A stretch of DNA of 47,077 nt from a virus (taxonomy: Duplodnaviria > Heunggongvirae > Uroviricota > Caudoviricetes), in the IMG/VR virus record IMGVR_UViG_2541047907_000002, positions 1-47,077 of that record; one strand, given 5' to 3'. The notes under the pieces were generated by a model. That model saw nothing but the letters and a program-made list of their open reading frames with translations, searched no databases and was not told the DNA's origin. This document shows, in pieces, positions 1,422 through 25,757 of this stretch (its first letter is position 1; every line of letters begins with the position of its first letter). A program made the translations under genes and the position numbers.

Positions 1422-3893
1422 TTAAAAATCAGCCTGACTCGGGATCAGTTTTTGCCAGATAGCTGAAACGTATTTTGCTTGGTAACGAGCGTCATCAAGT
1501 GCATTATGGCGCTCACCTTCGAATGGGATAGCAGTTCTGGCATCGAAGTCTATGGCTTTCCCCAGCTCAACGATTGTGCGTACATCGCGATCGTTGTAGT
1601 AACGCCACGGGCAGGGGATCCCCTGCCGTTCGTATGAACGGCGTAAAATCGTGTTGTCGAAGTTGGCTCCATTTCCCCAGATCTGAACAAAAAACTCACC
1701 GGAGTTTTCGGCGATAAATTCCCGCAATTGCAGTAGTGCATCATCTAACGGGATTTCATCGGTCATAATGGCAGATTGCGCCTCGCGTGATTGCTTAAGC
1801 CACCATTTAATGGTGTCACGATCAATGACTCCGCCAGCAGTTTCCAGATCGATAGTCTTACTAAATTCCGGTCCCATATCTCCGGTTTGCGGATCGAAAA
1901 ATATTGCACCTATTGAGATAATCGGGGCATCAGGATTTTTTCCCATGGTTTCAAGGTCGATCATTAGATGGTCACACGTCCTGCTGGTGGATGTGATAAC
2001 GTGATGACCGTTCACCGTAATTAAGGGATCTGACGTCTCGCCAGTTTCACTATCGCTGACGTGGTCCTGAGCGCTGCCAGCATTCTCCTTGTGTGGATGT
2101 TCAGCGCCTTCCATTTTCTCCGAATCGTCTTCCTGAACTTCAACCTGGTTCTTGTCATCGAATGTTTCCTGGTATGTTGCGTCGCCCATCACCGCACCAC
2201 AATCAGGGCAGTTGCCGCCACCGCTCTGACCGCAGGCGGTGCAGATCTTTTCCGGTTCCTGTTGCACTACTGGTTCAGGTTGTTTCGTTTCTGGCTCGTT
2301 TTGTTGCGTATTTGGGCTGTTTTGTTCCGCTTTCTGGTCGTTCTGTTCCGTTTCTTGCTGGTTCTGGTTCACAGAATCGCGGGTTTCAATCCCCTTCACC
2401 CATTTCGGATCATTTGGATCGCTAATCCCTGCAACAAATTCACCACGTGATATTGCAAGCAGTTCATCGGCGTCAGGCTGGCTGATATTGGCTGCCTGCA
2501 TAATTTTGTTTACTTCGTCAGCGGTGACTTTTACCGGCCCTGGTTGTGCGGTCGTGTCAGATGCACCAGTATTTTGTTGTGAACCTGAGTATGTACCGTT
2601 TTTGCGGGCGAAATATTCTTCTTTCATGATTTCAGTAGCCCCGGCAGCCAGTGCCTTATCCAGACCAGAAAGTTTGTTTGCGCGACCGTATTTTTCGCCA
2701 TCCTTGTCGGTGAAGAGGAAGTAGAACGGCCCCTCACGCTCTACAGATGGTTCGACTTCCACTTTGCATTCGGTTTTTTCGTTGTCCGGAATTGCCGTTT
2801 CCACTGCATCAGTTTCTGGTACTGGCGACGAGAGAGTATCAGTTGCGCTCTGATTTCTTCCTTCATCTTCAAACACGCCCTTTGTAGTCAGGTATTCAGT
2901 AATGTATTTGTTCAGTGCCACAGGGTCTTTGTGAATGTCGATCGGACGTTCACGGACAAGGCCAAAAATAGTCTGGCGGTCGTAGCGAAGGGCATCAGGC
3001 TGTTTGCGCATTGATGCCGAGATACGCTTCCAGTCTTCGCGGTCGTTGTCGATAACTTCATTTTTTGCCCAGCGATGGATGCTGCCGTCAATGTTTCCGG
3101 CATCCACATCACCAGGCCAGAGAGCGTAGGCCAGTTCGTCATCCAGTGCTTTCCATGTCTGCTTGTATTCGCGATGAGTGGCAGCAATGACCGGGTTGAT
3201 TTTTCCTGTTGAACTTTCAGTGTGCTGTTGATTGGCTCTGGCGCGGGCGAGATCAACAACAGACGTGTATTTTCCGGTTTCCTTGCGTTCACCTTCGCGA
3301 CGTTTTTTCCAGATGCGCATCTCTGCCTGAATTTCGGGCCATTTGGCACCAGGCTTACATTTATGCTTAACCCACCCGATGGCATGCAGCTTAAGCTCCG
3401 GATACATGGCGTTAACTTCTGGCATTTTCATCAACGCTTCAACGATATGGCCGTCGAATGTTGCCATGTCTTCCTGCAACAATTCCTGTGCGCTAATCAC
3501 CATATCAACAGTGATGTTTTCACATGTGTCGAACTTAACCATGACAGCGTTCTGTACTTCAGGGGCCAGGTTGTCAAAAGTGACGTTCATCGGATCGGAT
3601 TCAGTCTCGACCGGAACAAAGGAAGCGGACGCCTCATCCCAGCGGTTTTCCTGCATATATTCAGCATCCCAGGAATCGAGGGCAGGGCGGGGTATACCGG
3701 GTTTATCCTCGCAGACAAGAAATTTATAAGCGCAGTCCTGAGCGGCCGGATATTGTTCCAGGAATTGCCAGTGAAATTTTGCGCGGGCGCGGCGTTCGTC
3801 GCCGGCTTCAATGGCAGTGGCTACAGCAACTGCACCTTCTTCCTTTATCGCCTGTTCGTCCGGAATGGCGGCGCAAATAAAGACTTTACTCAT
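1422..3893 (-). CDS. Large prophage exonuclease with C-terminal DEDDh (DnaQ-like) 3'-5' exonuclease domain and a central Cys4 zinc ribbon
   Basis: 823 aa; C-terminus carries MIDLETMG (Exo I D-x-E) and HNALDDARY (Exo III H-x4-D) motifs; central CTACG...CPDCG cluster; long acidic/Q-rich linker. Confidence 0.7.
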   Translation of the reverse strand: MSKVFICAAIPDEQAIKEEGAVAVATAIEAGDERRARAKFHWQFLEQYPAAQDCAYKFLVCEDKPGIPRPALDSWDAEYMQENRWDEASASFVPVETESDPMNVTFDNLAPEVQNAVMVKFDTCENITVDMVISAQELLQEDMATFDGHIVEALMKMPEVNAMYPELKLHAIGWVKHKCKPGAKWPEIQAEMRIWKKRREGERKETGKYTSVVDLARARANQQHTESSTGKINPVIAATHREYKQTWKALDDELAYALWPGDVDAGNIDGSIHRWAKNEVIDNDREDWKRISASMRKQPDALRYDRQTIFGLVRERPIDIHKDPVALNKYITEYLTTKGVFEDEGRNQSATDTLSSPVPETDAVETAIPDNEKTECKVEVEPSVEREGPFYFLFTDKDGEKYGRANKLSGLDKALAAGATEIMKEEYFARKNGTYSGSQQNTGASDTTAQPGPVKVTADEVNKIMQAANISQPDADELLAISRGEFVAGISDPNDPKWVKGIETRDSVNQNQQETEQNDQKAEQNSPNTQQNEPETKQPEPVVQQEPEKICTACGQSGGGNCPDCGAVMGDATYQETFDDKNQVEVQEDDSEKMEGAEHPHKENAGSAQDHVSDSETGETSDPLITVNGHHVITSTSRTCDHLMIDLETMGKNPDAPIISIGAIFFDPQTGDMGPEFSKTIDLETAGGVIDRDTIKWWLKQSREAQSAIMTDEIPLDDALLQLREFIAENSGEFFVQIWGNGANFDNTILRRSYERQGIPCPWRYYNDRDVRTIVELGKAIDFDARTAIPFEGERHNALDDARYQAKYVSAIWQKLIPSQADF

Positions 3894-4371: not shown

Positions 4372-4929
4372 TCAACAATGAATTTTTAGTAATTGCTCCA
4401 CAGTCATATTTTTAATTGCACTCCGGTTTACAAGAGTCCAGCCTTGTTTCTCCAGATAAAACTGGAAGGTATCCAGGGTGCAGACCATTGCGCCGTCAGG
4501 AACGGTTTCAGTGAATTTGATATTGCCGTGTTCGTCGAGACGGATAACCAGGGTGCGTCCGTCCCCGTGAATCATTTTGTCGGGAGACGGGGCGTTATTC
4601 TGGCGCAGTTCTTCCTCCATGCGATCGAACTCAGCAATGTAGGCTTCCTTGAATGCAGCTGCTTTTTTGCCGGTGAAGCCCATCACCAGGAAAACGAAGC
4701 CGTTTTTGGTGATTTGGTACATTGGGCGTTTTTTGCCTTGCTCATCAATATATTCGGCGGGCGCAAAATTGCGCTCGCTAAATTTCTGTGAGCATTCCAA
4801 GTTGTCGATTTTTTTCAGAACATCTTTATGCATTTTGCGGAAGAATTCCGCGATGGCGACAGACGTGGTGACGGCACGACCATTTTCTACGGTTACACAA
4901 GGGTGAGAAAGGGTAGGGATAGTAGCCAT
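4372..4929 (-). CDS. Rha-family phage regulatory protein
   Basis: Segment TTSVAIAEFFRKMHKDVLKKIDNL...SERNF...QGKKRPMYQITKNGFVFLVMGFTGKKAAAFKEAYIAEF matches the Phage_pRha pattern as recalled; start placed at internal ATG 4927-4929 preceded by AGAGG; the ORF is open up to 5226, so the true start is uncertain. Confidence 0.65.
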   Translation of the reverse strand: MATIPTLSHPCVTVENGRAVTTSVAIAEFFRKMHKDVLKKIDNLECSQKFSERNFAPAEYIDEQGKKRPMYQITKNGFVFLVMGFTGKKAAAFKEAYIAEFDRMEEELRQNNAPSPDKMIHGDGRTLVIRLDEHGNIKFTETVPDGAMVCTLDTFQFYLEKQGWTLVNRSAIKNMTVEQLLKIHC

Positions 4930-5412
4930 GATGGCAGCCTCTAGTGATAAGTTAGTTAACTCACCACCATGGCTTTCCACGACCATAAAGGTGGTGAGAC
5001 GTACAGGGGTGGAAATACCGGTCACTAGAGAACCCGGCCAGCCTTTCGGCTGCCCTGCACGCCCCACCATAATGCGAATGAGGCTGTGCTTAGCGCATAA
5101 AAAAACCGCTTTGGCGCGGTTATGCGCTCTAGTGAACATCGGGTTTCCACGCCCGGCACCCGTTTTATAAGGTGCAGGTGCACTATAATTCCACCCGTTC
5201 TGGTTTTCAATAGCTACATTCAACATTTTCTCTACCTTTCATCACCGAAGTGAACTTTGTTGATGCGGTGCCTGGTGCCTCCAGGTGACGTTAACCAGTT
5301 AACAATTAACGCCGGAATACAGAAGGATTCCCGTTACGCCAGTAAAAGGCCCCATCACTGTTTTAACTGTTCCGCGTGCGCATAGCCGCATTCACCGCAT
5401 CACAAAATTCAC

Positions 5413-5458
5413 TTTAAAAAGGGCGGGTATCACGGGGAAAACAAAACGGATACCCGCC
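5413..5458 (-). terminator. Putative intrinsic terminator for leftward transcription
   Basis: Perfect 10 bp stem GGCGGGTATC/GATACCCGCC (5422-5431 / 5449-5458) with a 17 nt loop; on the minus strand it is followed by a U-run (plus-strand TTTAAAAA at 5413-5420). Confidence 0.35.
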
Positions 5459-5792
5459 AAAGCTACTTCACATGGAGTGTTGCAGCGGGGTTGTCACTTA
5501 AGCGTATGGTCAACCTGACAACCCGGTGTCTTCAACGGGAACGAATAACCCCGCCATACTTACCGCCGCGCCATTTCGCGGAGTGCCACAACCGGAAGTG
5601 CACGGTCGAATTAAATTTAACGACACCGTACAGACAGAAGAACTTCGCCGTGCGCTTTCGTGTTATGTGCCTGCTTTTAACCACGTCAGGCGAGGTGGTT
5701 CCTGTCATTCCCCAACAACAAGAAATTTGTATAATCCGGATACCCCAACAACGAGAAGAGTGCTCAACGTGATAGCAGAACTGTCAGCGGCT

Positions 5793-6281
5793 ATGGCTGC
5801 GATAAAGGAGACAGCTGGTCTCGCAAAGGTTATTAATGACGCAAAAACGGATGCAGAAGTTAAAGCCGCAACTATTGAACTTCAGAACAAACTAATCACG
5901 CTTCAGGCGGAGTGCTTCTCTCTTGGTGATGCGATCCGTCTTCGTAACGAAGAGATAATGCTTCTCAAAGCAAAAATTGCAGAATTCGAAAACTTTCAGA
6001 TTCAGACTGAAGGTTATGTTCTTAACCAACTCGAATCGGGTGCTTTTGTATACTCGAAGGAGGAAACGGTGAATGGAGGCACTGTTACTATGCATCTTTG
6101 TCCAAAATGTTTTGGACAAAAGACAGTATCTATACTCCAGCCATTCCCGGTTAGCGAAGATGCGCCTTTTCATGAAAGTAAGTGTCTCCACTGTGAAAAC
6201 AAGTTTCTGATGAACAAAAATCCGGATTACATACCGCTGTCTTTTGATGAGATAGCGAGAACACTGGGCAGTAATCCGTAG
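5793..6281 (+). CDS. Hypothetical protein, coiled-coil N-terminus and C-terminal Cys4 zinc ribbon
   Basis: CPKC...CLHC pairs near the C-terminus; start set at ATG 5793; alternative starts at GTG 5769 or ATG 5526 cannot be excluded. Confidence 0.45.
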   Translation: MAAIKETAGLAKVINDAKTDAEVKAATIELQNKLITLQAECFSLGDAIRLRNEEIMLLKAKIAEFENFQIQTEGYVLNQLESGAFVYSKEETVNGGTVTMHLCPKCFGQKTVSILQPFPVSEDAPFHESKCLHCENKFLMNKNPDYIPLSFDEIARTLGSNP

Positions 6282-6408
6282 GTTATTGCTGTTGTGGATA
6301 TCCAGATTGTTAAAGAACATGCCGGATGCTTATCCGTGTCCGGCGCACGACCACACGTAGCAGCGTGTTGGTCTCCATTTTCAACCCAGAACCTCAATGG
6401 AGGATAAA

Positions 6409-6594
6409 ATGTCAGACAAGTTAATTAACCCATTTACCTATCCATCTGTTGCAGCTTTGAACTTAACAGTTGAGTTAATTCGGGCTGGCAAAATGTCATC
6501 CCCTTCAGAGGCGGCCAATTCAGTTATTACAATTCACAATATATTGAAAGAAGAAAAACAAGCCGCTATGGAGAAGACTGATAAAGAGCAATAA
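6409..6594 (+). CDS. Hypothetical small protein (61 aa)
   Basis: ATG at 6409 preceded by GGAGG with good spacing. Confidence 0.4.
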   Translation: MSDKLINPFTYPSVAALNLTVELIRAGKMSSPSEAANSVITIHNILKEEKQAAMEKTDKEQ

Positions 6595-6724
6595 AGGCTT
6601 CTCTGATTTCTTGAGCCAGTTTTTTAGCTGGCTCTACCTTTTCTGTCCCACCGTCCAAAATGAGAGATTTCAGTGTTTCTGCGGCGATTTTCTGAGTGTC
6701 TGGAGGTAAATCTTTAAATTCCAT
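6566..6724 (-). CDS. Hypothetical small protein (52 aa), not in the supplied ORF track
   Basis: Hand-translated minus-strand ORF MEFKDLPPDTQKIAAETLKSLILDGGTEKVEPAKKLAQEIREAFIALYQSSP; GAGG 7 nt upstream of the ATG; 11 nt downstream of the preceding minus-strand gene; 3' end overlaps the convergent ORF 6409-6594 by 29 nt. Confidence 0.3.
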   Translation of the reverse strand: MEFKDLPPDTQKIAAETLKSLILDGGTEKVEPAKKLAQEIREAFIALYQSSP

Positions 6725-7183: not shown

Positions 7184-7603
7184 TTAAGAGGCTTTTTGTT
7201 TTTTCTTTCGTGCTAACTCTTCGTAAATTGCATTGTACTTCTGTTTTTTCTCCTCAAGAGTTTTTAAAAGTTCATCTGTCTCACTGTCAGGGAGCTCGTC
7301 CAGAAGATCAATGATGATTTTTTGTCTTGGATTTAACTCCTGATAGAAACGTACCTGTCCACTTTCTTCTGTATCCTCTCCCAAAAGATAGGTTGGTGTT
7401 GTTCCAATGAGTGTTGCTAATTCCCTTAATTTCTCTCGGCGAGGAATTGTTTCGCCATTAAACCATTTGCTAACCGCTTTTGGTGTTAATTTCATTCGAC
7501 GGGCAATTTCTGCCTGCCTTCCATGTTGTTCATAACCAGCGTTTTCACAGGCTAGCGCAAGCCTACTGGCGAACTCTTTACGCGCTTTATCTTCATGAAC
7601 CAT
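7184..7603 (-). CDS. Phage repressor, XRE-family helix-turn-helix (cI/DicA-like)
   Basis: 139 aa; N-terminal HTH segment QAEIARRMKLTPKAVSKWFNGETIP; divergently arranged with a Cro-like gene. Confidence 0.8.
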   Translation of the reverse strand: MVHEDKARKEFASRLALACENAGYEQHGRQAEIARRMKLTPKAVSKWFNGETIPRREKLRELATLIGTTPTYLLGEDTEESGQVRFYQELNPRQKIIIDLLDELPDSETDELLKTLEEKKQKYNAIYEELARKKKQKAS

Positions 7604-7682
7604 AAGTTCAATGATATTCGCTCTTGAATGTACTGTCAGTTCTGTTATAGCATGTACTCAAAGTTCACATTGTGAGGGTGAT
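7604..7682. promoter_or_regulatory. Repressor/cro intergenic operator-promoter region (O_R-like)
   Basis: 79 bp divergent intergenic region with two ATGTACT boxes (7628-7634, 7652-7658) sharing the core of the boxes at 7067-7110. Confidence 0.4.
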
Positions 7683-7937
7683 ATGAACCAGAAAACACTT
7701 GAAGATGTAATCAAAACTGTTCGCGTTTCTGTTGTGGCCGACGTTTGTGGTGTCAGCCAAAGAGCAATCTACAAATGGATGGATAACGGAAAATTGCCTC
7801 GCACTGAATATACCGGCGAAACAAATTACGCTGAAAAAATCGCTCATGCATCAAACGGATTATTTTCTGCCGATGCAATTTTAACTATTGGCAGAAATAA
7901 AACTACTACGAAAAAGCTGTTGGGAGTTGATTCATGA
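7683..7937 (+). CDS. Cro-like (YdaS-like) DNA-binding protein
   Basis: Start ATG 7683 preceded by GAGGGTG; HTH-like CGVSQRAIYKWMDNGKLP; divergent from the repressor. Confidence 0.6.
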   Translation: MNQKTLEDVIKTVRVSVVADVCGVSQRAIYKWMDNGKLPRTEYTGETNYAEKIAHASNGLFSADAILTIGRNKTTTKKLLGVDS

Positions 7938-8359
7938 AAATCAAGCATGAACACATCCGCATGGCGATGAATGCCTGGGCACATCCGGATGGCGAAAAAG
8001 TTCCGGCAGCTGAAATAACCCGGGCTTATTTTGAGTTGGGGCTGACGTTTCCTGAACTGTACGACGACAGCCATCCGGAAGCCCTGGCTCGCAATACCCA
8101 GAAAATTTTCCGCTGGGTGAAGAAAGACACCCCTGATGCTGTTGAAAAAATTCAGGCGTTGTTACCGGCGATCGAAAGGGCAATGCCACCTCCGCTCGTG
8201 GCCTGGATGCGCAGCCACAGTTCGGAATATCACCGGGAGCTTGTCGAGCGACGGGATCGGCTGATGAAAGATATAGATGAGCTCGTTGCATCAGCGATCG
8301 TTCTGTTCGATCAGATGAATCGTGGTGGTCCGGTGGGAAATATTGTGGTTGTGCATTGA
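7934..8359 (+). CDS. YdaT-like prophage protein (toxin-like family)
   Basis: 141 aa beginning MKIKHEHIRMAMNAWAHPDGEKVPAAEITRAYFELG, which matches the Rac-prophage YdaT family as recalled; start overlaps the cro-like stop by 4 nt. Confidence 0.55.
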   Translation: MKIKHEHIRMAMNAWAHPDGEKVPAAEITRAYFELGLTFPELYDDSHPEALARNTQKIFRWVKKDTPDAVEKIQALLPAIERAMPPPLVAWMRSHSSEYHRELVERRDRLMKDIDELVASAIVLFDQMNRGGPVGNIVVVH

Positions 8360-14888: not shown

Positions 14889-15248
14889 ATGCGTATAGAG
14901 TTTGTTTTGCCTTACCCGCCGACGGTGAACACCTACTGGCGACGTCGTGGCAGCACATATTTTGTATCAAAAGCCGGTGAGCGTTATCGCCGTGATGTGG
15001 CGCTTATTGTTCGCCAGCAGCGACTGAAATTAAACCTGTCCGGAAGGCTGGCAATAAAGATTATTGCAGAGCCACCGGATAAGCGCCGTCGTGACCTGGA
15101 CAATATTCTGAAAGCACCACTGGATGCACTGACACATGCGGGGTTGCTTATCGACGACGAGCAGTTTGATGAAATCAATATTGTGCGCGGTCAGGTCGTT
15201 CCTGGTGGTCGGCTGGGGATAAAAATCACAGAACTGGAGTGCGCATGA
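14889..15248 (+). CDS. rusA: RusA-family Holliday junction resolvase
   Basis: 119 aa beginning MRIEFVLPYPPTVNTYW with later DLDNILKAPLDAL segment, typical RusA; AGAGG upstream. Confidence 0.8.
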   Translation: MRIEFVLPYPPTVNTYWRRRGSTYFVSKAGERYRRDVALIVRQQRLKLNLSGRLAIKIIAEPPDKRRRDLDNILKAPLDALTHAGLLIDDEQFDEINIVRGQVVPGGRLGIKITELECA

Positions 15249-15934
15249 ATAACCAGTATTTACAGTTTGTTCGTGAGCAACTCATGATTGCCACCACCGA
15301 TTTGAGTGGATCAACAAAAGGGCAGCTTGAGGCCTGGCAGGAGAATGCCATGTTTGATACAGGGCGTTACAGGCGTAAAAAAATCCGGTACCGCGATGAA
15401 GTGACCGGAAAAATGATAACGCTGGATAATCCACCAATCCCGGGGAAACAATCGCTGGCGAAGGGGACGTCAATTCCTCTGGTAAGTCAGGTTGAGTTTT
15501 CGACATCATCATGGCGACGGGCAGTTCTGTCTCTTGAAGAACATCATAAAACCTGGTTGTTGTGGTGTTACAGCGGAAGTATTTGCTGGGAGTATCAGAT
15601 CGCGATAACACAGTGGGTGTGGAATGAATTTAAGGCGCAATCCGGTACCAGAAAAATTGCAGGGAAAACGCTGGAGCGCCTGAAAAAATTAATCTGGCTG
15701 GCGGCACAGGATGTGAAGAGTGAGCTGGCTGGGCGTGAAACTTATGAATATCAGGAACTGGCATTACTGGCGGGTGTGACAACAAAAAACTGGTCCAAAA
15801 CATTTACTGGTCACTGGGTTGCAATGAAAGACATTTTCCACCGGCTGGATAGTGAGGCCTTATTGTTTGTGATGAGAACACGTTCAGAACAAAAGACGGC
15901 ATTTTCAAAGAAAAGTATTGCAAAAGTAGATTAA
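15245..15934 (+). CDS. Putative late-gene antiterminator Q
   Basis: 229 aa; ATGA overlap with rusA; position (after rusA, before the late/lysis region) and Cys/Trp-rich core fit the Q family. Confidence 0.6.
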   Translation: MNNQYLQFVREQLMIATTDLSGSTKGQLEAWQENAMFDTGRYRRKKIRYRDEVTGKMITLDNPPIPGKQSLAKGTSIPLVSQVEFSTSSWRRAVLSLEEHHKTWLLWCYSGSICWEYQIAITQWVWNEFKAQSGTRKIAGKTLERLKKLIWLAAQDVKSELAGRETYEYQELALLAGVTTKNWSKTFTGHWVAMKDIFHRLDSEALLFVMRTRSEQKTAFSKKSIAKVD

Positions 15935-20051: not shown

Positions 20052-20765
20052 ATGGATGTTGTCTGTTCAGTTATCATGGTTTGCTCCCCAATTAATATTT
20101 TTCTTGAAAAGGATACGTTGTCACTTAAGCCCGGCTCAATCGTTCTGGCCACCAAATGCATCAGGGAGCTTTTCCTTATGCATTATGGCAAAGTTAAAAT
20201 TGTCGATATAAGCCATTCTATAGTAAGTCAATATCTGGAAAGCCAGCATAAGCTGACAAGAGGTCCTCTGACTGACATTCCGCTTTACTTGTTGCTGGAC
20301 CCCAACAATCCTGCGTTGGCTGCGGCTTTAATTACCAGCCAGAGATTTTCCGGAGAGATCACGGATATGTTTCTTATGATGGCCTGCCTGTCGCTGTTTG
20401 AATCAGATGAACGGATGTCATTATTTTTAATTGGATGTGTATCCAGTATAAGTGTCAAAGTCAGAGCGATAATTCAAACAGATATATCAGCAAGCTGGAC
20501 GCTTGGTGCGATTGCTCTACAGTTGCATATGAGTGAGAGCTTGTTAAAGAAAAAACTCAAGGATGAAGGTCTCAGGTTCAGTAATTTGTTACTTGAGGAA
20601 CGGATGCGGGTTGCTGTAAATATGTTATGTTCCCGGCATGGATATGGACAGGCTCTAGCAGAAAAATGCGGTTATTCAAGTAGGTCCTACTTTATCTCTG
20701 TATTTCACCGCTATTATGGCTTCCCGCCAGACAGATATGTATCTATGCAAAGGCTTGATTTTTGA
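20052..20765 (+). CDS. AraC-family transcriptional regulator
   Basis: 237 aa; C-terminal double-HTH region WTLGAIALQLHMSESLLKKKLKDEG...GYSSRSYFISVFHRYYGFPPDRY typical of AraC/XylS. Confidence 0.7.
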   Translation: MDVVCSVIMVCSPINIFLEKDTLSLKPGSIVLATKCIRELFLMHYGKVKIVDISHSIVSQYLESQHKLTRGPLTDIPLYLLLDPNNPALAAALITSQRFSGEITDMFLMMACLSLFESDERMSLFLIGCVSSISVKVRAIIQTDISASWTLGAIALQLHMSESLLKKKLKDEGLRFSNLLLEERMRVAVNMLCSRHGYGQALAEKCGYSSRSYFISVFHRYYGFPPDRYVSMQRLDF

Positions 20766-20792
20766 TTTCATCTGATTACTATTTTTCGATCC

Positions 20793-20868
20793 GGCCCTTT
20801 AGCTCAGTGGTGAGAGCGAGCGACTCATAATCGCCAGGTCGCTGGTTCAAATCCAGCAAGGGCCACCA
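20793..20868 (+). tRNA. tRNA with CAU anticodon, ileX-like (Ile2/lysidine type)
   Basis: Hand-folded cloverleaf: acceptor GGCCCTT/AAGGGCC, D-stem GCTC/GAGC, anticodon loop CTCATAA, T-loop TTCAAAT, 3' CCA; very similar to E. coli ileX as recalled. Confidence 0.8.
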
Positions 20869-20869
20869 A

Positions 20870-20946
20870 CCGCCACTAGCTCATCAGGAAAGAGCATCAA
20901 CCTTCTAAGTTGACGGCGCGAGGTTCGAGTCCTCGGTGGTGGGCCA
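20870..20946 (+). tRNA. tRNA-Arg (UCU anticodon)
   Basis: Hand-folded: acceptor CCGCCAC/GTGGTGG (one G-U pair), anticodon loop CTTCTAA, T-arm CGAGG-TTCGAGT-CCTCG, 3' CCA; unusual C1 start. Confidence 0.6.
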
Positions 20947-20948
20947 GT

Positions 20949-21024
<76 letters not shown>

Positions 21025-21027
21025 TAT

Positions 21028-21102
<75 letters not shown>

Positions 21103-21633: not shown

Positions 21634-22014
21634 ATGTTCAGCGGTTGCGGGATACAGCAAAAAAAGCTGGTCAGTGCTTATGAAGATTCTCTGGAATTGC
21701 CTGCTTCACAGTGGTGCGATATTAACGGAAAAGAACGCCCGTATGTTCATATTTTGTGGAATGGGCACAATACAAAACCTGAGGATTTGCGGGTAGAGCT
21801 TCAGGATGGTGTTGCATTTGATTTGTGGACTGTCGTTGATGATAACCCACGTCAGTCTGCAAGCATGAAGATTGGCATACAGATTCTGTTGCTTGATGGC
21901 GACAACATAACGATTTCAGTTGATGGCTATCAGGCCAGAACATTTTCGCACGTAGATACGGACGCAAAAATTAACGAGATATGCGAGTTCATCAAAGACA
22001 GTATTTTAATGTAG
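21634..22014 (+). CDS. Hypothetical protein (126 aa) upstream of the lysis cassette
   Basis: ORF between the terminator and the holin; start ambiguous because a second frame (GTG about 21573) overlaps and meets it at an A7 run (21659-21665). Confidence 0.4.
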   Translation: MFSGCGIQQKKLVSAYEDSLELPASQWCDINGKERPYVHILWNGHNTKPEDLRVELQDGVAFDLWTVVDDNPRQSASMKIGIQILLLDGDNITISVDGYQARTFSHVDTDAKINEICEFIKDSILM

Positions 22015-22261
22015 ATGAATGATGTGAAATTTGACAAAGCATCTCTTCCGAAGATAGAAGGCTGGAGTCGTAATAAAGGAATCGTTCGAAAATCTCTGAA
22101 TCATCGGGCTGCGCACTTGCGCGGCCTTTTTTATATCCGCGCCACGTCCGGCGCACATCACATCAGATAACACCACACAAAAGGTATCTGCGGGTGCCTT
22201 TGACGGGGTGTTGTTTTTTACGGGCCGACAGTGGCCCTTTTTTATTTACAGGAGAAAAAGT

Positions 22262-22654
22262 ATGTCTGAACCCTTATCCGGTTCCGGCACGGCTGCGGCG
22301 CTCGGCGGGGCGACGGTATTCGGGCTGTTTACCGGAACGGATTTCGGGATAGTGTTTGGCGCATTTGCCGGTGCACTGTTCGTGGCCACGATACCGCAAG
22401 CGCTTTCAGCCTGGCGGGTGGCAGCGCATTTTCTGGTGTCGTTTATTGTCGGCGTGCTGGGCGCGGATGTTCTGGCATCCTGGCTGGTAAAGCATACAGA
22501 GTTTAACAGTGCGCCTGTCGACGCATTGTGTGCAGTGCTGGTATCAGTGGTGTCGGTGAAGATTCTGTCGTTCATCCACCAGCAGGATATCGCATCACTG
22601 GTATCCGGCCTGTTCTCGCGCCTGCGGGGCGGAGGAGGTGGCAATGTTAAGTAA
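22262..22654 (+). CDS. Putative holin (multi-pass membrane protein)
   Basis: Start ATG 22262 preceded by AGGAGAAAAAG; 3-4 Gly-rich hydrophobic segments; directly upstream of the endolysin. Confidence 0.5.
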   Translation: MSEPLSGSGTAAALGGATVFGLFTGTDFGIVFGAFAGALFVATIPQALSAWRVAAHFLVSFIVGVLGADVLASWLVKHTEFNSAPVDALCAVLVSVVSVKILSFIHQQDIASLVSGLFSRLRGGGGGNVK

Positions 22655-22922
22655 CCTTCCCGGCTTGCTGAATGTGGCGTTATGCACGGTTATCGTGCTG
22701 ACGCTCTTTTTTTATCGTCGTCGCGATTCCAGACATAAACCACTGATGTCATGGCTGGCCTGGCTGCTGATGCTGCTTTATGCCTTTGCGCCCCTCAGTT
22801 ATCTGTGCGGACACTTCCCGCCGGGTAACTGGCTGGTGGTGTTTTTTAACCTGCTGGTCTGTGTGCTGGTGATACGCGCACGCGGGAACGTTTCAAAAAT
22901 CCTTGTATTACGAAGGCGCTGA
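22644..22922 (+). CDS. Second holin-like small membrane protein
   Basis: 93 aa with three hydrophobic segments and a basic C-terminal tail (RARGNVSKILVLRRR); GGAGGAGGTG upstream; overlaps both neighbours. Confidence 0.4.
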   Translation: MLSNLPGLLNVALCTVIVLTLFFYRRRDSRHKPLMSWLAWLLMLLYAFAPLSYLCGHFPPGNWLVVFFNLLVCVLVIRARGNVSKILVLRRR

Positions 22923-22923
22923 T

Positions 22924-23469
22924 ATGAAGTTGAAAGATGAAATTTTTGACGAAGTTCTGGGAAAAGAGGGCGGCTACGTCAATCATCCGGACGATAAAGG
23001 CGGACCGACAAAATGGGGTATTACGGAAAAAGTCGCCCGCGCTCACGGATATCGCGGCGATATGCGTGACCTGACGCGCGGGCAGGCGCTGGAAATACTC
23101 GAGGCGGATTACTGGTATGGCCCGCGATTTGACCTGGTGGCAAATCTGTCGCCGGATATTGCTGCTGAACTGTGCGACACGGGGGTGAATATGGGGCCGT
23201 CGGTGGCGACGAAGATACTTCAGCGCTGGCTGAATGTGTTCAATCAGGGCGGGAAGCTGTATCCGGATATGGATGCAGATGGACGAATCGGGCCGCGAAC
23301 CATGAATGCACTGCGTGAATACCTGCAGAAACGGGGCAGGGACGGAGAACTGGTGTTACTGAAATCGCTGAACTGCACGCAGGGTGACCGTTATCTGGAA
23401 CTGGCAGAGAAACGCGAGGCCAATGAGTCGTTTGTGTATGGCTGGATGAAAGAGCGTGTTGGTCTGTAA
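22924..23469 (+). CDS. Endolysin, glycoside hydrolase family 108 (N-acetylmuramidase) with C-terminal peptidoglycan-binding domain
   Basis: N-terminal EGGYVNHPDDKGGPTKWGIT is the GH108 signature as recalled; start ATG 22924 preceded by GAAGG. Confidence 0.75.
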   Translation: MKLKDEIFDEVLGKEGGYVNHPDDKGGPTKWGITEKVARAHGYRGDMRDLTRGQALEILEADYWYGPRFDLVANLSPDIAAELCDTGVNMGPSVATKILQRWLNVFNQGGKLYPDMDADGRIGPRTMNALREYLQKRGRDGELVLLKSLNCTQGDRYLELAEKREANESFVYGWMKERVGL

Positions 23470-23557
23470 TGCTTATCTCTGCACTCAGTAAGAACGGTTA
23501 ATCCTCTTTGCGGTTGGTGAAGTATTGGATTTACTGAAAAGAAAACCCCGACTGCCC

Positions 23558-23584
23558 GGCCCACGTAAACGTGTGGGCTTTTTC
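23558..23584 (+). terminator. Intrinsic terminator after the lysis cassette
   Basis: Stem GCCCAC/GTGGGC followed by TTTTT. Confidence 0.5.
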
Positions 23585-23728
23585 ATATCTGAATTTTTCT
23601 GCGCATCTCACGCGCATATCACAACACAGAACCTTTCAGGATGACCCTTGAGGAGCCGGCTGGCTGTCGGTGCCTTTCTGTGGGCCGGATTCCTGTGAGA
23701 CAAGGTTCATCACTAAAAGGTAATTCCG

Positions 23729-24295
23729 ATGAATATGATGACAGTGCCGTTTCACGGCGATTCTCTTTATGTGGTTAACCATAACGGCGAACCATACGTT
23801 CCCATGAAACCTGTCGTTGAGGGGATGGGGCTGGCATGGCAATCACAGTTGGCTAAGTTAAGACGGCGTTTCGCGTCAACTATAACGGAAATCGTTATGG
23901 TTGCTGAGGATGGGAAACGACGCAATATGGTGTCCCTGCCACTTCGAAAACTTGCAGGCTGGTTACAAACCATCAGTCCAAACAAAGTAAACCCCAAAAT
24001 CCGCGACAAGGTGATTCAGTATCAGGAAGAGTGTGACGATGTTCTCTACGAATACTGGACAAAGGGCGTTGTTGTTAATCCGCGTCGACTGAGCGTGATG
24101 GAAGAACTCAACCAGGCTTGCGCCGACATGAAACGGGATAAAAACATCGCCAGCCTGTTTGGTACCGGCCTGAATGAGTGGAAAACGGTAAAGGCTGCAC
24201 ACGTATCAAAAATTCGTGCGCTGGTGGATGAAGCCAATTTGTTTATTGATTTTGTGCTGGCTGGTACCGGAAAGGGAAAGGTGACGAAAACATGA
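23729..24295 (+). CDS. Antirepressor-like (Ant/P22 AR N-terminal-like) regulatory protein
   Basis: 188 aa; N-terminal region resembles phage antirepressor N-domains (tentative); AAAGG upstream of ATG. Confidence 0.45.
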   Translation: MNMMTVPFHGDSLYVVNHNGEPYVPMKPVVEGMGLAWQSQLAKLRRRFASTITEIVMVAEDGKRRNMVSLPLRKLAGWLQTISPNKVNPKIRDKVIQYQEECDDVLYEYWTKGVVVNPRRLSVMEELNQACADMKRDKNIASLFGTGLNEWKTVKAAHVSKIRALVDEANLFIDFVLAGTGKGKVTKT

Positions 24296-24474
24296 GCCAA
24301 AAACACTGGACACACAGAATGCCGCGAACGGCGGCGAAATGGGCACTGGTAGCGATACTGGTGCCTTTTTTATTGGCGGGATGCGTCAGCCTGGATAAGG
24401 CGCGCCAGATTTTCGATACAGTTTCTCTGGTCTGTGAAATTGTCGACAGTGTCCGACAGTGTATGCAGAACTGA
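24292..24474 (+). CDS. Small lipoprotein (60 aa)
   Basis: Signal-like N-terminus ending in the lipobox LLAGC; ATGA overlap with the upstream gene. Confidence 0.4.
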   Translation: MSQKHWTHRMPRTAAKWALVAILVPFLLAGCVSLDKARQIFDTVSLVCEIVDSVRQCMQN

Positions 24475-24645
24475 TCGCCTGTAGGAGCAGAATATTTTGC
24501 TGAAAAATGAAGGATGCGTCAGCGTCCGGAAAGCATGAAATTCTGTGTTTGTAGCTGCTCAATAAAATAAATTCTTTCTGTCGCCGCGAATACTCAAATG
24601 TTGATCAGCGCCCGGTGCGGCGACGGGCTTCGATATCAGGAGACG

Positions 24646-24945
24646 ATGATGGAAAAAACAGAAAACAAACCGATTGTAATTGGTGCTGATGCTGCTCCGT
24701 TTAAGTTTGAGTTGTCTCAACTGGTGGAGATGCGCATCAGTGATGAATGGGGTGAGGTTAAAGCCCGCGCGCAGTATGCGAATGGCGAAAACCAGTACTT
24801 GATCCACTACAAAGCAGCTGATGGTCGCGCCACGACGGAGTGGTTTGGTGAGTTAATGCTGGAAGCAACAGAAGATGATTGTCATCCTGGTTGTCCGGTA
24901 TTTGCTGGTATGGAATTACCGAAAGGCGCGGTCGTTACTGAGTAA
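24646..24945 (+). CDS. Hypothetical protein (about 99 aa)
   Basis: ATG 24646 preceded by AGGAGACG; no family recognised. Confidence 0.4.
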   Translation: MMEKTENKPIVIGADAAPFKFELSQLVEMRISDEWGEVKARAQYANGENQYLIHYKAADGRATTEWFGELMLEATEDDCHPGCPVFAGMELPKGAVVTE

Positions 24946-25039
24946 CGGGCATTACAGCAGCCCTTTATGGTGAGGGGCTGCGATAATGCAGGTATTAGAG
25001 TGTGCGTAAATGATAATTGCTCCTATTTCCGCGGGTCCT

Positions 25040-25110
25040 TTCCAGAACCTGAAACACCGGGGGTAGGCATACGCGCAAAAACGCGCTATTTATGAAAATT
25101 TTCCGGGATC
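25040..25110. other. Lambda-type cos region (cosN/cosB-proximal sequence)
   Basis: CGCTATTTATGAAAATTTTCCGG (25083-25105) matches the sequence just right of cosN in phage lambda as recalled; lies ~140 bp upstream of a Nu1-like small terminase gene. Confidence 0.4.
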
Positions 25111-25247
25111 CACTTCCGGTTTTTAATTATCTAACCAATTGATTAGATTGTTTTTAGTTATCAAAAAAAACGGAAGTCCGACCAGTTGGTGGGAAGAATG
25201 GCGGTCAAAACGGAGTTGAGTGTAAAGTGAACAGCTAAAGAGGGTGT

Positions 25248-25757
25248 ATGGCAACGCAGGCGGAGGTGGCCGAGCATCTTGGTATAACTGAACGCTGGTT
25301 GCGGGATCTTCAGAAGCACCCGGGAGCGCCAAAAAATCGAAAGCGTGGTGAATACGATATTGATGCCTGGCGATATTTTTATATTTCATACCTTAAACGC
25401 AAAGGAAGAAGCGATACTGATGACGATGGAAATAGCGATTACGAAGAAAAATTACTTATTGCCAGATGGAAATTGACTGAAGAACAGGCAATAGCGCAGC
25501 AACTAAAAAATCAGGTAACCGAAGGCAAGCTCATTGATTCAGGGTTCTGCGTTTTCGCCCTCAGCAAACTGGCGATGGCATTGTCCAGTACGCTTGATTC
25601 CATTCCTTTATCCATGCAGCGACAGTTCCCGGATTTAACCCCGCGCCATATTGATCATCTGAAAACCCTTATCGCAAAGGGAGCGAATCAGTGTGCGCGG
25701 GCAGGGGATAAATTGCCGGAGTTACTCGATGAATATATCCGAACAACAGCTGAATAA
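25248..25757 (+). CDS. Terminase small subunit, lambda Nu1-like
   Basis: N-terminal HTH (QAEVAEHLGITERWLRDL) and C-terminal FCVFALSKLAMALSSTLDSIPLSMQRQFPDL closely parallel lambda Nu1 as recalled. Confidence 0.75.
   Translation: MATQAEVAEHLGITERWLRDLQKHPGAPKNRKRGEYDIDAWRYFYISYLKRKGRSDTDDDGNSDYEEKLLIARWKLTEEQAIAQQLKNQVTEGKLIDSGFCVFALSKLAMALSSTLDSIPLSMQRQFPDLTPRHIDHLKTLIAKGANQCARAGDKLPELLDEYIRTTAE

Follow-up and report, generated by a model that had tools for sequence, protein, structure and literature searches.

Three probably separate late-operon modules, among them a small lipoprotein in the Rz/Rz1 slot, between the lysis and packaging genes of a lambdoid Escherichia coli prophage

Genes of the lysis-to-packaging interval

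The window analysed here is a 47,077-nucleotide (nt) stretch of Caudoviricetes DNA (IMG/VR record IMGVR_UViG_2541047907_000002, positions 1 to 47,077) and is a lambdoid Escherichia coli prophage. We focus on the interval between its lysis and packaging genes, where three open reading frames (ORFs) of 188, 60 and approximately 98 amino acids (aa) are all present on the + strand. A previous, sequence-only reading had seen in them an antirepressor (Ant)-like gene coupled to a small lipoprotein gene and followed by an unassigned protein, and had suggested that the Ant-like protein is a second input into the lysogeny switch, beside a Rha-type regulator. That interpretation was partly supported: it was right on the domains and on the interval as a moron slot, wrong on an Ant–lipoprotein unit and unsupported on the second input. 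On balance we favour three independent late-operon modules with no Ant–lipoprotein unit, namely a lysis-cassette lipoprotein, a gated Ant cassette and an unrelated 98-aa gene.

The exact proteins of the interval are shared with approximately 50 E. coli draft assemblies, so these genes are genuine and conserved rather than chance ORFs; in those assemblies their only annotations are ‘phage antirepressor N-terminal domain-containing protein’ and ‘hypothetical’. In a relative, the integrase end adjoins ompW. Downstream of the interval in the window lie genes for Nu1-type and GpA-type terminase subunits (Pfam, PHROG). The features of the lysis cassette and the interval are as follows.

22262..22654, + strand: holin-family gene 1 (Phage_holin_8), first gene of the lysis cassette; Pfam PF16931, 3.9e-22; PHROG 198 ‘holin’
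22644..22922, + strand: holin-family gene 2 (Phage_holin_3_7, three transmembrane segments); Pfam PF05449, 1.2e-19; PHROG 217 ‘holin’
22924..23469, + strand: endolysin (GH108 and PG_binding_3); Pfam PF05838, 7.9e-26, and PF09374, 1.5e-25
23558..23585, + strand: intrinsic-terminator hairpin and T-run, left end of the Ant cassette; 9-bp stem followed by TTTTCATATC (terminator scan)
23600..23616, + strand: small GC hairpin (TGCGC-N7-GCGCA) in the Ant leader; minimum free energy (MFE) fold
23631..23721, + strand: long leader hairpin, its foot ACCUUU (23631-23636) pairing with the Shine-Dalgarno (SD) sequence AAAGGU (23716-23721); RNAalifold, covariation and MFE
23729..24295, + strand: Ant-like ‘Bro-network’ protein, 188 aa, P22_AR_N and ORF11CD3 helical domain; Pfam, PHROG and homologues
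24292..24474, + strand: precursor of a predicted outer-membrane lipoprotein, 60 aa; lipobox, family alignment, contexts, Rz/Rz1 exclusivity and phiP27 homologue
24649..24945, + strand: acidic protein, 98 aa, predicted beta-rich, independent module; PHROG 1935 ‘unknown’

The Phage_holin_8 gene is called as 130 aa in contigs identical to the window. The ORF put at approximately 99 aa by the sequence-only reading does exist on the + strand, with a start at 24649 (98 aa) or 24646 (99 aa); it had been listed as 24598-24945 (115 aa), and we place the start at 24649 because of homology and an AGGAGA SD sequence. Searches of NCBIfam and PADLOC gave no match for any of the three interval proteins.

The lipoprotein as the fourth gene of the lysis cassette

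The 60-aa protein reads MSQKHWTHRMPRTAAKWALVAILVPFLLAG/CVSLDKARQIFDTVSLVCEIVDSVRQCMQN, the slash marking the end of the signal peptide (LLAG/C). An n-region, an h-region and the previously noted lipobox were all found, and it is the sole ORF on either strand of the window to pass the lipobox filter. It matches PHROG 7528 (‘unknown’) end to end (2e-36), and its family comprises 118 clusters, confined to the Enterobacteriaceae. The lipobox is kept across 18 aligned members. In the window protein the residue at position +2 is Val, not Asp; the protein is predicted to be exported, lipidated at Cys31 and, because the +2 residue is Val, sorted to the outer membrane. Its mature part of 30 aa is amphipathic and helical, with a net charge of -1 and conserved Cys49 and Cys57. 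Family-wide conservation extends to an N-terminal HWTHRxPR extension, the lipobox and two more cysteines spaced C-x7-C, and since the extension is conserved, the first ATG is taken to be the real start.

Every homologue of the lipoprotein begins with ATGA. In prophages of Yersinia enterocolitica and Citrobacter braakii, whose cassettes contain no 98-aa gene and adjoin different packaging modules, the lipoprotein ATG overlaps the stop codon of the GH108 endolysin by 4 nt. A Salmonella locus retains the lipoprotein beside a third packaging module; in another locus (L022) it begins 14 nt past the stop of an M15 endolysin; and in phiP27 and E. coli PSS-15 the lipoprotein and the 98-aa gene occur without Ant. 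Many E. coli prophages, too, have the lipoprotein gene overlapping or directly adjoining that of the endolysin. Cassette and lipoprotein stay together next to no fewer than three packaging modules, whether the 98-aa gene is there or not, and in the window nothing but the Ant cassette stands between the endolysin and the lipoprotein.

We then counted the genes that occupy this position. A holin scan of genome contigs gave only two loci, and IMG/VR was used instead, yielding 80 loci with a close holin_3_7, 63 of them uncut. The lipoprotein was present in 58 of the 80 cassettes, Rz/Rz1 in seven, neither in 15 and both in none (one-sided Fisher P = 5e-5, relatedness ignored); for the 63 uncut loci the figures were 49 with the lipoprotein, seven with Rz/Rz1 and seven with neither. 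The 15 loci with neither include some that are cut and some that carry LT-II-like toxin genes. At the same offset after the M15 endolysin, some loci have the lipoprotein and others have Rz. Ant was absent from all 58 lipoprotein cassettes and present in only three of the 80, each time with Rz. The lipoprotein is a fourth, translationally coupled gene of the lysis cassette and a positional alternative to Rz/Rz1. The ATGA overlap noted previously is there, with the ATG of the 60-aa ORF (24292-24294) overlapping the TGA of the 188-aa ORF (24293-24295), but the two genes are not a coupled unit: the lipoprotein belongs to the holin–holin–endolysin cassette, and the overlap appears to be a recombination junction that re-uses its ATGA.

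A role in outer-membrane disruption would fit this position, although the protein resembles no known lysis protein closely. Homologues of Rz, Rz1 and Bor were not found in the window, including by tblastn with 933W Rz1 and Bor, and no ORF resembling an inner-membrane spanin (i-spanin), with an N-terminal transmembrane domain (TMD) and a periplasmic coiled coil, lies in 23470-25250; nor was an i-spanin found in L012, L015 or L022. The lipoprotein has no Pfam match at E <= 0.1, which places it outside the known outer-membrane spanin (o-spanin) families (Rz1, LysC), and its 30-aa mature part lacks the hydrophobic C-terminal segment of a unimolecular spanin of the T1 gp11 type. With no inner-membrane partner and an amphipathic helix of 30 residues and net charge -1, it is probably neither a canonical spanin subunit nor a cationic ‘disruptin’-like peptide. 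In the mechanism we propose, the cassette order would be holin_8, holin_3_7, endolysin, lipoprotein; translation of the last would be coupled by its ATGA overlap to whichever gene lies upstream; and the protein would act at the last step of lysis, in the slot held by Rz/Rz1 in sister cassettes.

The same position could be read differently, with the lipoprotein serving not in lysis but in lysogenic conversion or exclusion, in the manner of Bor, Cor or T5 Llp (serum resistance, receptor blocking). The slot does carry morons, as the sequence-only reading had it: relatives have LT-II-like toxin genes there (L048, L052 and L060) and 933W has bor at the interval. A small outer-membrane lipoprotein with conserved cysteines and no i-spanin partner would also suit such a role. 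We nevertheless consider it rather unlikely, as the protein has no similarity to Bor or to any Pfam family, and its gene, unlike a Bor-type moron, is co-oriented and translationally coupled with the endolysin and other late genes and has no promoter or terminator of its own. The linkage to holin and endolysin also survives changes of tail and packaging modules, which would be unexpected for a receptor-specific role, and the gene is mutually exclusive with Rz/Rz1.

Several observations concern the sequence of the lipoprotein gene and its surroundings. A terminator-like hairpin (11-bp stem and TTTTTTATT; 24341-24366, + strand) lies within the signal-peptide codons. Homologues hardly differ in DNA over this stretch, and conservation is higher in the h-region than in the mature peptide, perhaps because of a constraint on the RNA or on termination. 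In L048, L052 and L060 (approximately 5400-6700), genes for LT-II-like enterotoxin A and B subunits follow the GH108 endolysin in place of the lipoprotein, and no spanin was detected in these three loci. ETEC1747 has an ADP-ribosyltransferase gene and a gene for a subtilase-family AB5 toxin binding subunit just upstream of the holins. A DUF3927-like protein of approximately 44-50 aa with a single TMD recurs in the relatives (L003 4692-4826, L004 3259-3393, L002 approximately 3720-3850 and L017 2160-2312). In GH108 cassettes it precedes the lipoprotein, in the ETEC1747 and 933W types it falls between ant and Rz, and in Salmonella it precedes the holins; it is unannotated in 933W and absent from the window.

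The 98-aa gene downstream is absent from many lipoprotein cassettes (Yersinia, Citrobacter, Salmonella), and we therefore regard it as an independent module. Pfam, NCBIfam and PADLOC returned nothing for its product. Only the Enterobacteriaceae have close homologues, while a profile search found a core of approximately 57 residues in 689 cluster representatives (E < 1e-3). The core corresponds to approximately residues 16-75, and many of these relatives are stand-alone proteins of 60-70 aa; Pfam scans of the distant relatives found no domain. The AlphaFold2 (AF2) model is beta-rich and of low confidence (predicted local distance difference test, pLDDT, 52). Our best guess, held with low confidence, is a cytoplasmic accessory (moron) protein. 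Elsewhere in the late region, downstream of Q (15239-15934), four tRNA genes stand in a row (20793-21099, + strand) between an AraC-type regulator gene (20052-20765) and the lysis cassette.

The Ant-like gene, its junctions and its structured leader

Domain searches bore out the Ant-like call for the 188-aa protein. It matches P22_AR_N (PF10547, 1.8e-45) over residues 5-114 and, in its C-terminal part, ORF11CD3 (PF10549, 3e-7). PHROG 524 ‘anti-repressor Ant’ is covered only at positions 7-208 of 317, and the P22_AR_C domain was not found by Pfam; full Ant length is approximately 300 aa. The protein is 88-90% identical to the ‘ant’ products of 933W and ETEC1747, and homologues are spread across the Enterobacterales (2711 hits). 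Both of its domains are among the 10 Bro-network Pfams (Iyer et al. 2002; PMC10111431), and its architecture, one N-domain with a shuffled C-domain, is that of the Bro network, to which the Rha protein of the window also belongs. The AF2 model (pLDDT 75) has an alpha/beta N-domain and a long helical hairpin. A sequence search of the PDB returned nothing meaningful and no solved homologue.

The position of this gene is highly consistent. In a census of 205 loci with Ant-like genes of 175-192 aa, scored for an endolysin ending no more than 450 nt upstream, 190 (approximately 93%) had such an endolysin, across several Enterobacterales genera; counted by unique leaders, the figure was 48 of 59. 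The gene lay between the endolysin and an Rz-type spanin in 175 of the 205 and had the window arrangement in seven. A homologous ant sits between the endolysin and Rz/Rz1 in 933W and ETEC1747; Serratia has a lysozyme gene, ant and then an i-spanin gene with an ATGA-type overlap; and the endolysin/spanin placement was also read in Proteus, Xenorhabdus and Hamiltonella APSE. In Photorhabdus, ant comes after Rz, and a Salmonella homologue (P0205) lies at contig ends, with the lysis genes out of view.

Homology between the window and other Ant cassettes covers 23558-24279, and both junctions could be mapped. The left boundary is the terminator hairpin (23558-23579) and its T-run. On the right, the boundary lies in the final one or two ant codons, where the window reads ACGAAAAC followed by ATGA, and 933W and ETEC1747 read ACAAAGACGGATTGA; Ant in the window thus ends on the lipoprotein's own ATGA. 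On these alignments, a mobile cassette holding the Ant-like gene appears to have entered between endolysin and lipoprotein. Among complete RefSeq E. coli genomes, none has a window-type Ant joined to the lipoprotein. The same ant–ATGA–lipoprotein junction is found, though, in prophages with the P0158 protein (NCBI name Salmonella enterica), with two other packaging modules and no 98-aa gene, and this recurrence suggests an established cassette variant rather than a one-off.

The gap between endolysin and Ant has a common anatomy across genera: first an intrinsic terminator, then a small GC hairpin and lastly a long hairpin ending at the SD sequence, which in the window lies 8-13 nt before the ATG. 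The hairpin and T-run occur at the matching position in relatives from six genera, and other leaders hold equivalent small hairpins of different sequence. The structured leader spans 23586-23728 in the window and is found in the equivalent gaps of L002, L004, L101-L111 and L192-L300, as well as in Shiga toxin (Stx) phages, 933W among them; the DNA upstream of four longer P22_AR_N proteins (247-306 aa) is unrelated. The structure is based on a sequence-only MAFFT alignment (A7) of 24 diverse leaders, in which RNAalifold predicted 20 pairs, 14 of them with compensatory changes. Paired cells made up 94.0%, compared with 77.7 ± 1.1% in shuffles and 34-47% for slid partners, and there were 83 doubly changed cells against 25.8 in shuffles. 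The covariation score was 0.505, against 0.208 for shuffled alignments (none of 500 reached 0.505) and 0.09-0.12 for slid ones. The window leader folds with an MFE of -50 kcal/mol (z = -2.5), and in 23 of 24 MFE folds a CC or UC further upstream, at the base of the stem, pairs with the GG of the SD (mean probability of pairing, 0.90).

This leader matched no Rfam family, no C4, isrK or sar-like Rfam match was found at the Ant-like gene, and the element did not turn up in the literature searched. A covariance model (R1) on a re-aligned alignment (A8) captured five base pairs and was not used. The leader was also considered as a known small RNA of Stx phages and rejected: the Pas small RNAs lie upstream of the holin, and the text of Tree et al. 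2014 makes no mention of the present location. A consensus scan found no sigma-70-like promoter on the + strand of 22000-25400, and no LexA box (CTGT-N8-ACAG) was seen when the leader was read by eye.

These features suggest a gate. The Ant cassette would consist of terminator, structured leader and ORF, inserted between endolysin and lipoprotein, with the last Ant codons fused to end on the lipoprotein ATGA. Transcription of Ant would occur only when Q-modified polymerase reads through the terminator, and the SD-occluding hairpin would hold down its translation. The signal that opens the gate could be RNase III cleavage, a trans factor or temperature. A following gene that Ant overlaps, such as the lipoprotein here or the i-spanin in Serratia, may come under the influence of the gate as well. 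As the gene lies downstream of the lysis genes and behind both the terminator and the hairpin, Ant would be expressed after commitment to lysis; the protein would then be a late-expressed, tightly gated member of the Bro network rather than the prophage's induction antirepressor.

An opposite view would have the cassette as a selfish, domain-shuffling Bro-network element at the endolysin–spanin junction, with no role in lysis or the switch and a leader that serves for RNase III processing or mRNA stability instead of gating translation. Phage RNase III sites resemble the long irregular stem, with its internal loop, of this leader; the boundaries of the cassette are sharp, and its neighbours are unrelated endolysin and spanin families. 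Bro-network proteins undergo domain shuffling and have been linked to nuclease-like folds and mobility (PMC10111431). Fold searches with the Ant-like model did return LAGLIDADG enzymes, as weak, non-significant matches, yet they gave no significant structural match and no nuclease motif. Between genera the protein keeps at least 63% identity and many residues do not vary at all, implying that its function is under selection, and the pairing of the SD in nearly all leaders would be needless for a pure processing site. We hold this to be the least probable of the readings considered here.

The lysogeny switch, implications and known systems

The remaining question is whether either gene feeds into the lysogeny switch. 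The relevant features lie on the minus strand.

4372-4929, minus strand: Rha gene, the Rha domain lying at the end of a 284-aa ORF that runs to 5226
4987-5074, minus strand: C4 RNA (RF01695); Rfam, 80 bits, gathering 45
5099-5175, minus strand: isrK (RF01394); Rfam, 65 bits, gathering 50
7184-7603, minus strand: repressor, 139-aa DicA-like helix-turn-helix (HTH) protein without a peptidase (S24) domain; domain scans

The Rha-type gene is thus present where it had been reported, inside a longer ORF. C4 and isrK lie within an Ash-like reading frame continuous with Rha, immediately upstream of the Rha domain, and the module as a whole (4372-5175, minus strand) is probably a real, RNA-controlled antirepressor-type module of the prophage. 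The immunity region (7184-8359) is of the Rac/Qin type, where a small HTH (YdaS-like) gene and a YdaT-family gene diverge from the repressor. Since the repressor has no peptidase domain, an antirepressor-type inducer is plausible for this prophage, and Rha is the better candidate for the regulated input because of its C4/isrK layout, a feature that the late Ant-like gene lacks.

Could the 188-aa protein nonetheless be a true antirepressor, directed against the repressor of its own or a co-resident prophage, with the lipoprotein as a co-expressed moron? Its P22_AR_N domain and the name of its PHROG point that way; a short DicA-like repressor probably needs an antirepressor for induction; and P22 ant, too, belongs to the late region and acts in trans. 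Yet P22_AR_C is missing, no arc/mnt-type regulators are found near the gene, its neighbours being endolysin and lipoprotein, and it stands late, behind a terminator and an SD-occluding hairpin. The embedding of approximately 93% of the family in lysis cassettes, and the scarcity of Ant where the lipoprotein occurs, tell against it as well. Nor does genetics help: the Stx-phage Ant that was knocked out, in phi24B, lies upstream of qut and resembles P22 Ant mainly in the C-terminal domain (Fogg et al. 2011), so we rejected that knockout as functional evidence, the gene being a different one. A second switch input of this kind seems improbable to us. Nothing ties the Ant-like protein to the switch, only the Rha module comes with C4 and isrK RNAs, and neither the lipoprotein nor the Ant-like gene looks like a lysogeny-switch input.

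Several points weigh against the three-module account that we favour. A mature lipoprotein of 30 aa is too short to span the periplasm, and with no i-spanin partner an o-spanin label may be wrong. As 15 of the 80 cassettes have neither the lipoprotein nor Rz, neither may be essential, and the exclusivity statistic takes no account of phylogenetic relatedness, many of the loci being near-identical. The promoter scan was a crude consensus search, and a weak or non-sigma-70 leader promoter may exist; the occlusion of the SD by the leader hairpin is itself a prediction. Finally, the DicA-like repressor needs some inducer, so the Ant-like protein stays a formal candidate.

The interval genes themselves belong to known families. 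What goes beyond current annotation is the lipoprotein as a partnerless occupant of the spanin slot, the Ant-like family as a resident of lysis cassettes and a covarying, putatively SD-occluding leader RNA. A bolder version, in which the lipoprotein is a stand-alone outer-membrane disruption factor that replaces the spanin complex and the Ant-like protein, terminator and leader form a conserved lysis-stage regulator of Enterobacterales phages, we regard as unlikely. If true, the lipoprotein would represent a third route of outer-membrane breakage, beside the spanins and the phiKT ‘disruptin’ peptide. Kongari et al. 2018 (PMC6139136) leave open how spanin-less phages breach the outer membrane, and a widespread cassette of E. 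coli, Salmonella, Yersinia and Citrobacter with a 30-residue lipoprotein in the Rz/Rz1 slot offers a testable candidate in a genetically easy host. For annotation, thousands of prophage ‘antirepressor’ genes of the 188-aa type, including those of Stx phages, sit in lysis cassettes without the defining domain of P22 Ant, and unless tested they should not figure as switch inputs in models of Stx-phage induction. Their covariation-supported leader, without an Rfam family, is found in Stx phages of medical relevance, directly after the toxin/lysis transcription unit.

The closest known counterpart of the Ant cassette is the Stx-phage ‘ant’ (933W L0108/ant and VT2-Sakai ant, between R and Rz), which shares P22_AR_N and ORF11CD3, a conserved leader of approximately 140 nt and the post-endolysin position. 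The downstream neighbours differ, an ATGA-fused lipoprotein in the window and a DUF3927-like small ORF followed by Rz/Rz1 in the Stx phages, as do the endolysins (GH108 against an R-type lysozyme); the window terminator hairpin matches the ETEC1747 version and not that of 933W. P22 Ant (immI) has the N-terminal P22_AR_N in common with the window protein, which differs from it in lacking P22_AR_C, in length (188 aa against approximately 300 aa), in having no arc/mnt neighbours and in carrying a cis hairpin leader in place of an antisense target. P22 ant is in a late-transcribed region, its ribosome-binding site region is under post-transcriptional control (sar RNA), and its product acts in trans on heteroimmune repressors. 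The Rha module of the window has the C4/isrK layout of P1 c4-icd-ant, P4 CI/eta and Gifsy-1 isrK-anrP (PMC10111431); the Ant-like gene has neither RNA.

For the lipoprotein, the direct homologue is found in phiP27, where positions 20706-20861 are listed as the o-spanin of a ‘separated’ two-component spanin (Kongari et al. 2018, PMC6139136). That entry is a 51-aa version of the window family with the same 30-residue helical periplasmic part. The i-spanin listed with it is a 64-aa ORF with a TTG start (20348-20542), which has the shortest periplasmic span of the whole set (PMC6139136) and is without a counterpart in the window or in cassettes where the lipoprotein abuts the endolysin; since this ORF is not conserved, the two-component assignment is unsupported for the family. 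The 64-aa ORF overlaps a more plausible 90-aa ORF on the minus strand (L001 4271-4543 region), and the annotated frame of phiP27 gene L32 is wrong, as judged by the conserved lipoprotein ORF (L001 4612-4800; site 4569-4800). Compared with lambda Rz/Rz1, the window lipoprotein shows no sequence similarity and lacks a proline-rich region, and its gene neither lies within an Rz-like gene nor has one as its partner; what it shares with the lambda system is the last slot of the lysis cassette, a precursor of 60 aa and the features of an outer-membrane lipoprotein with periplasmic cysteines.

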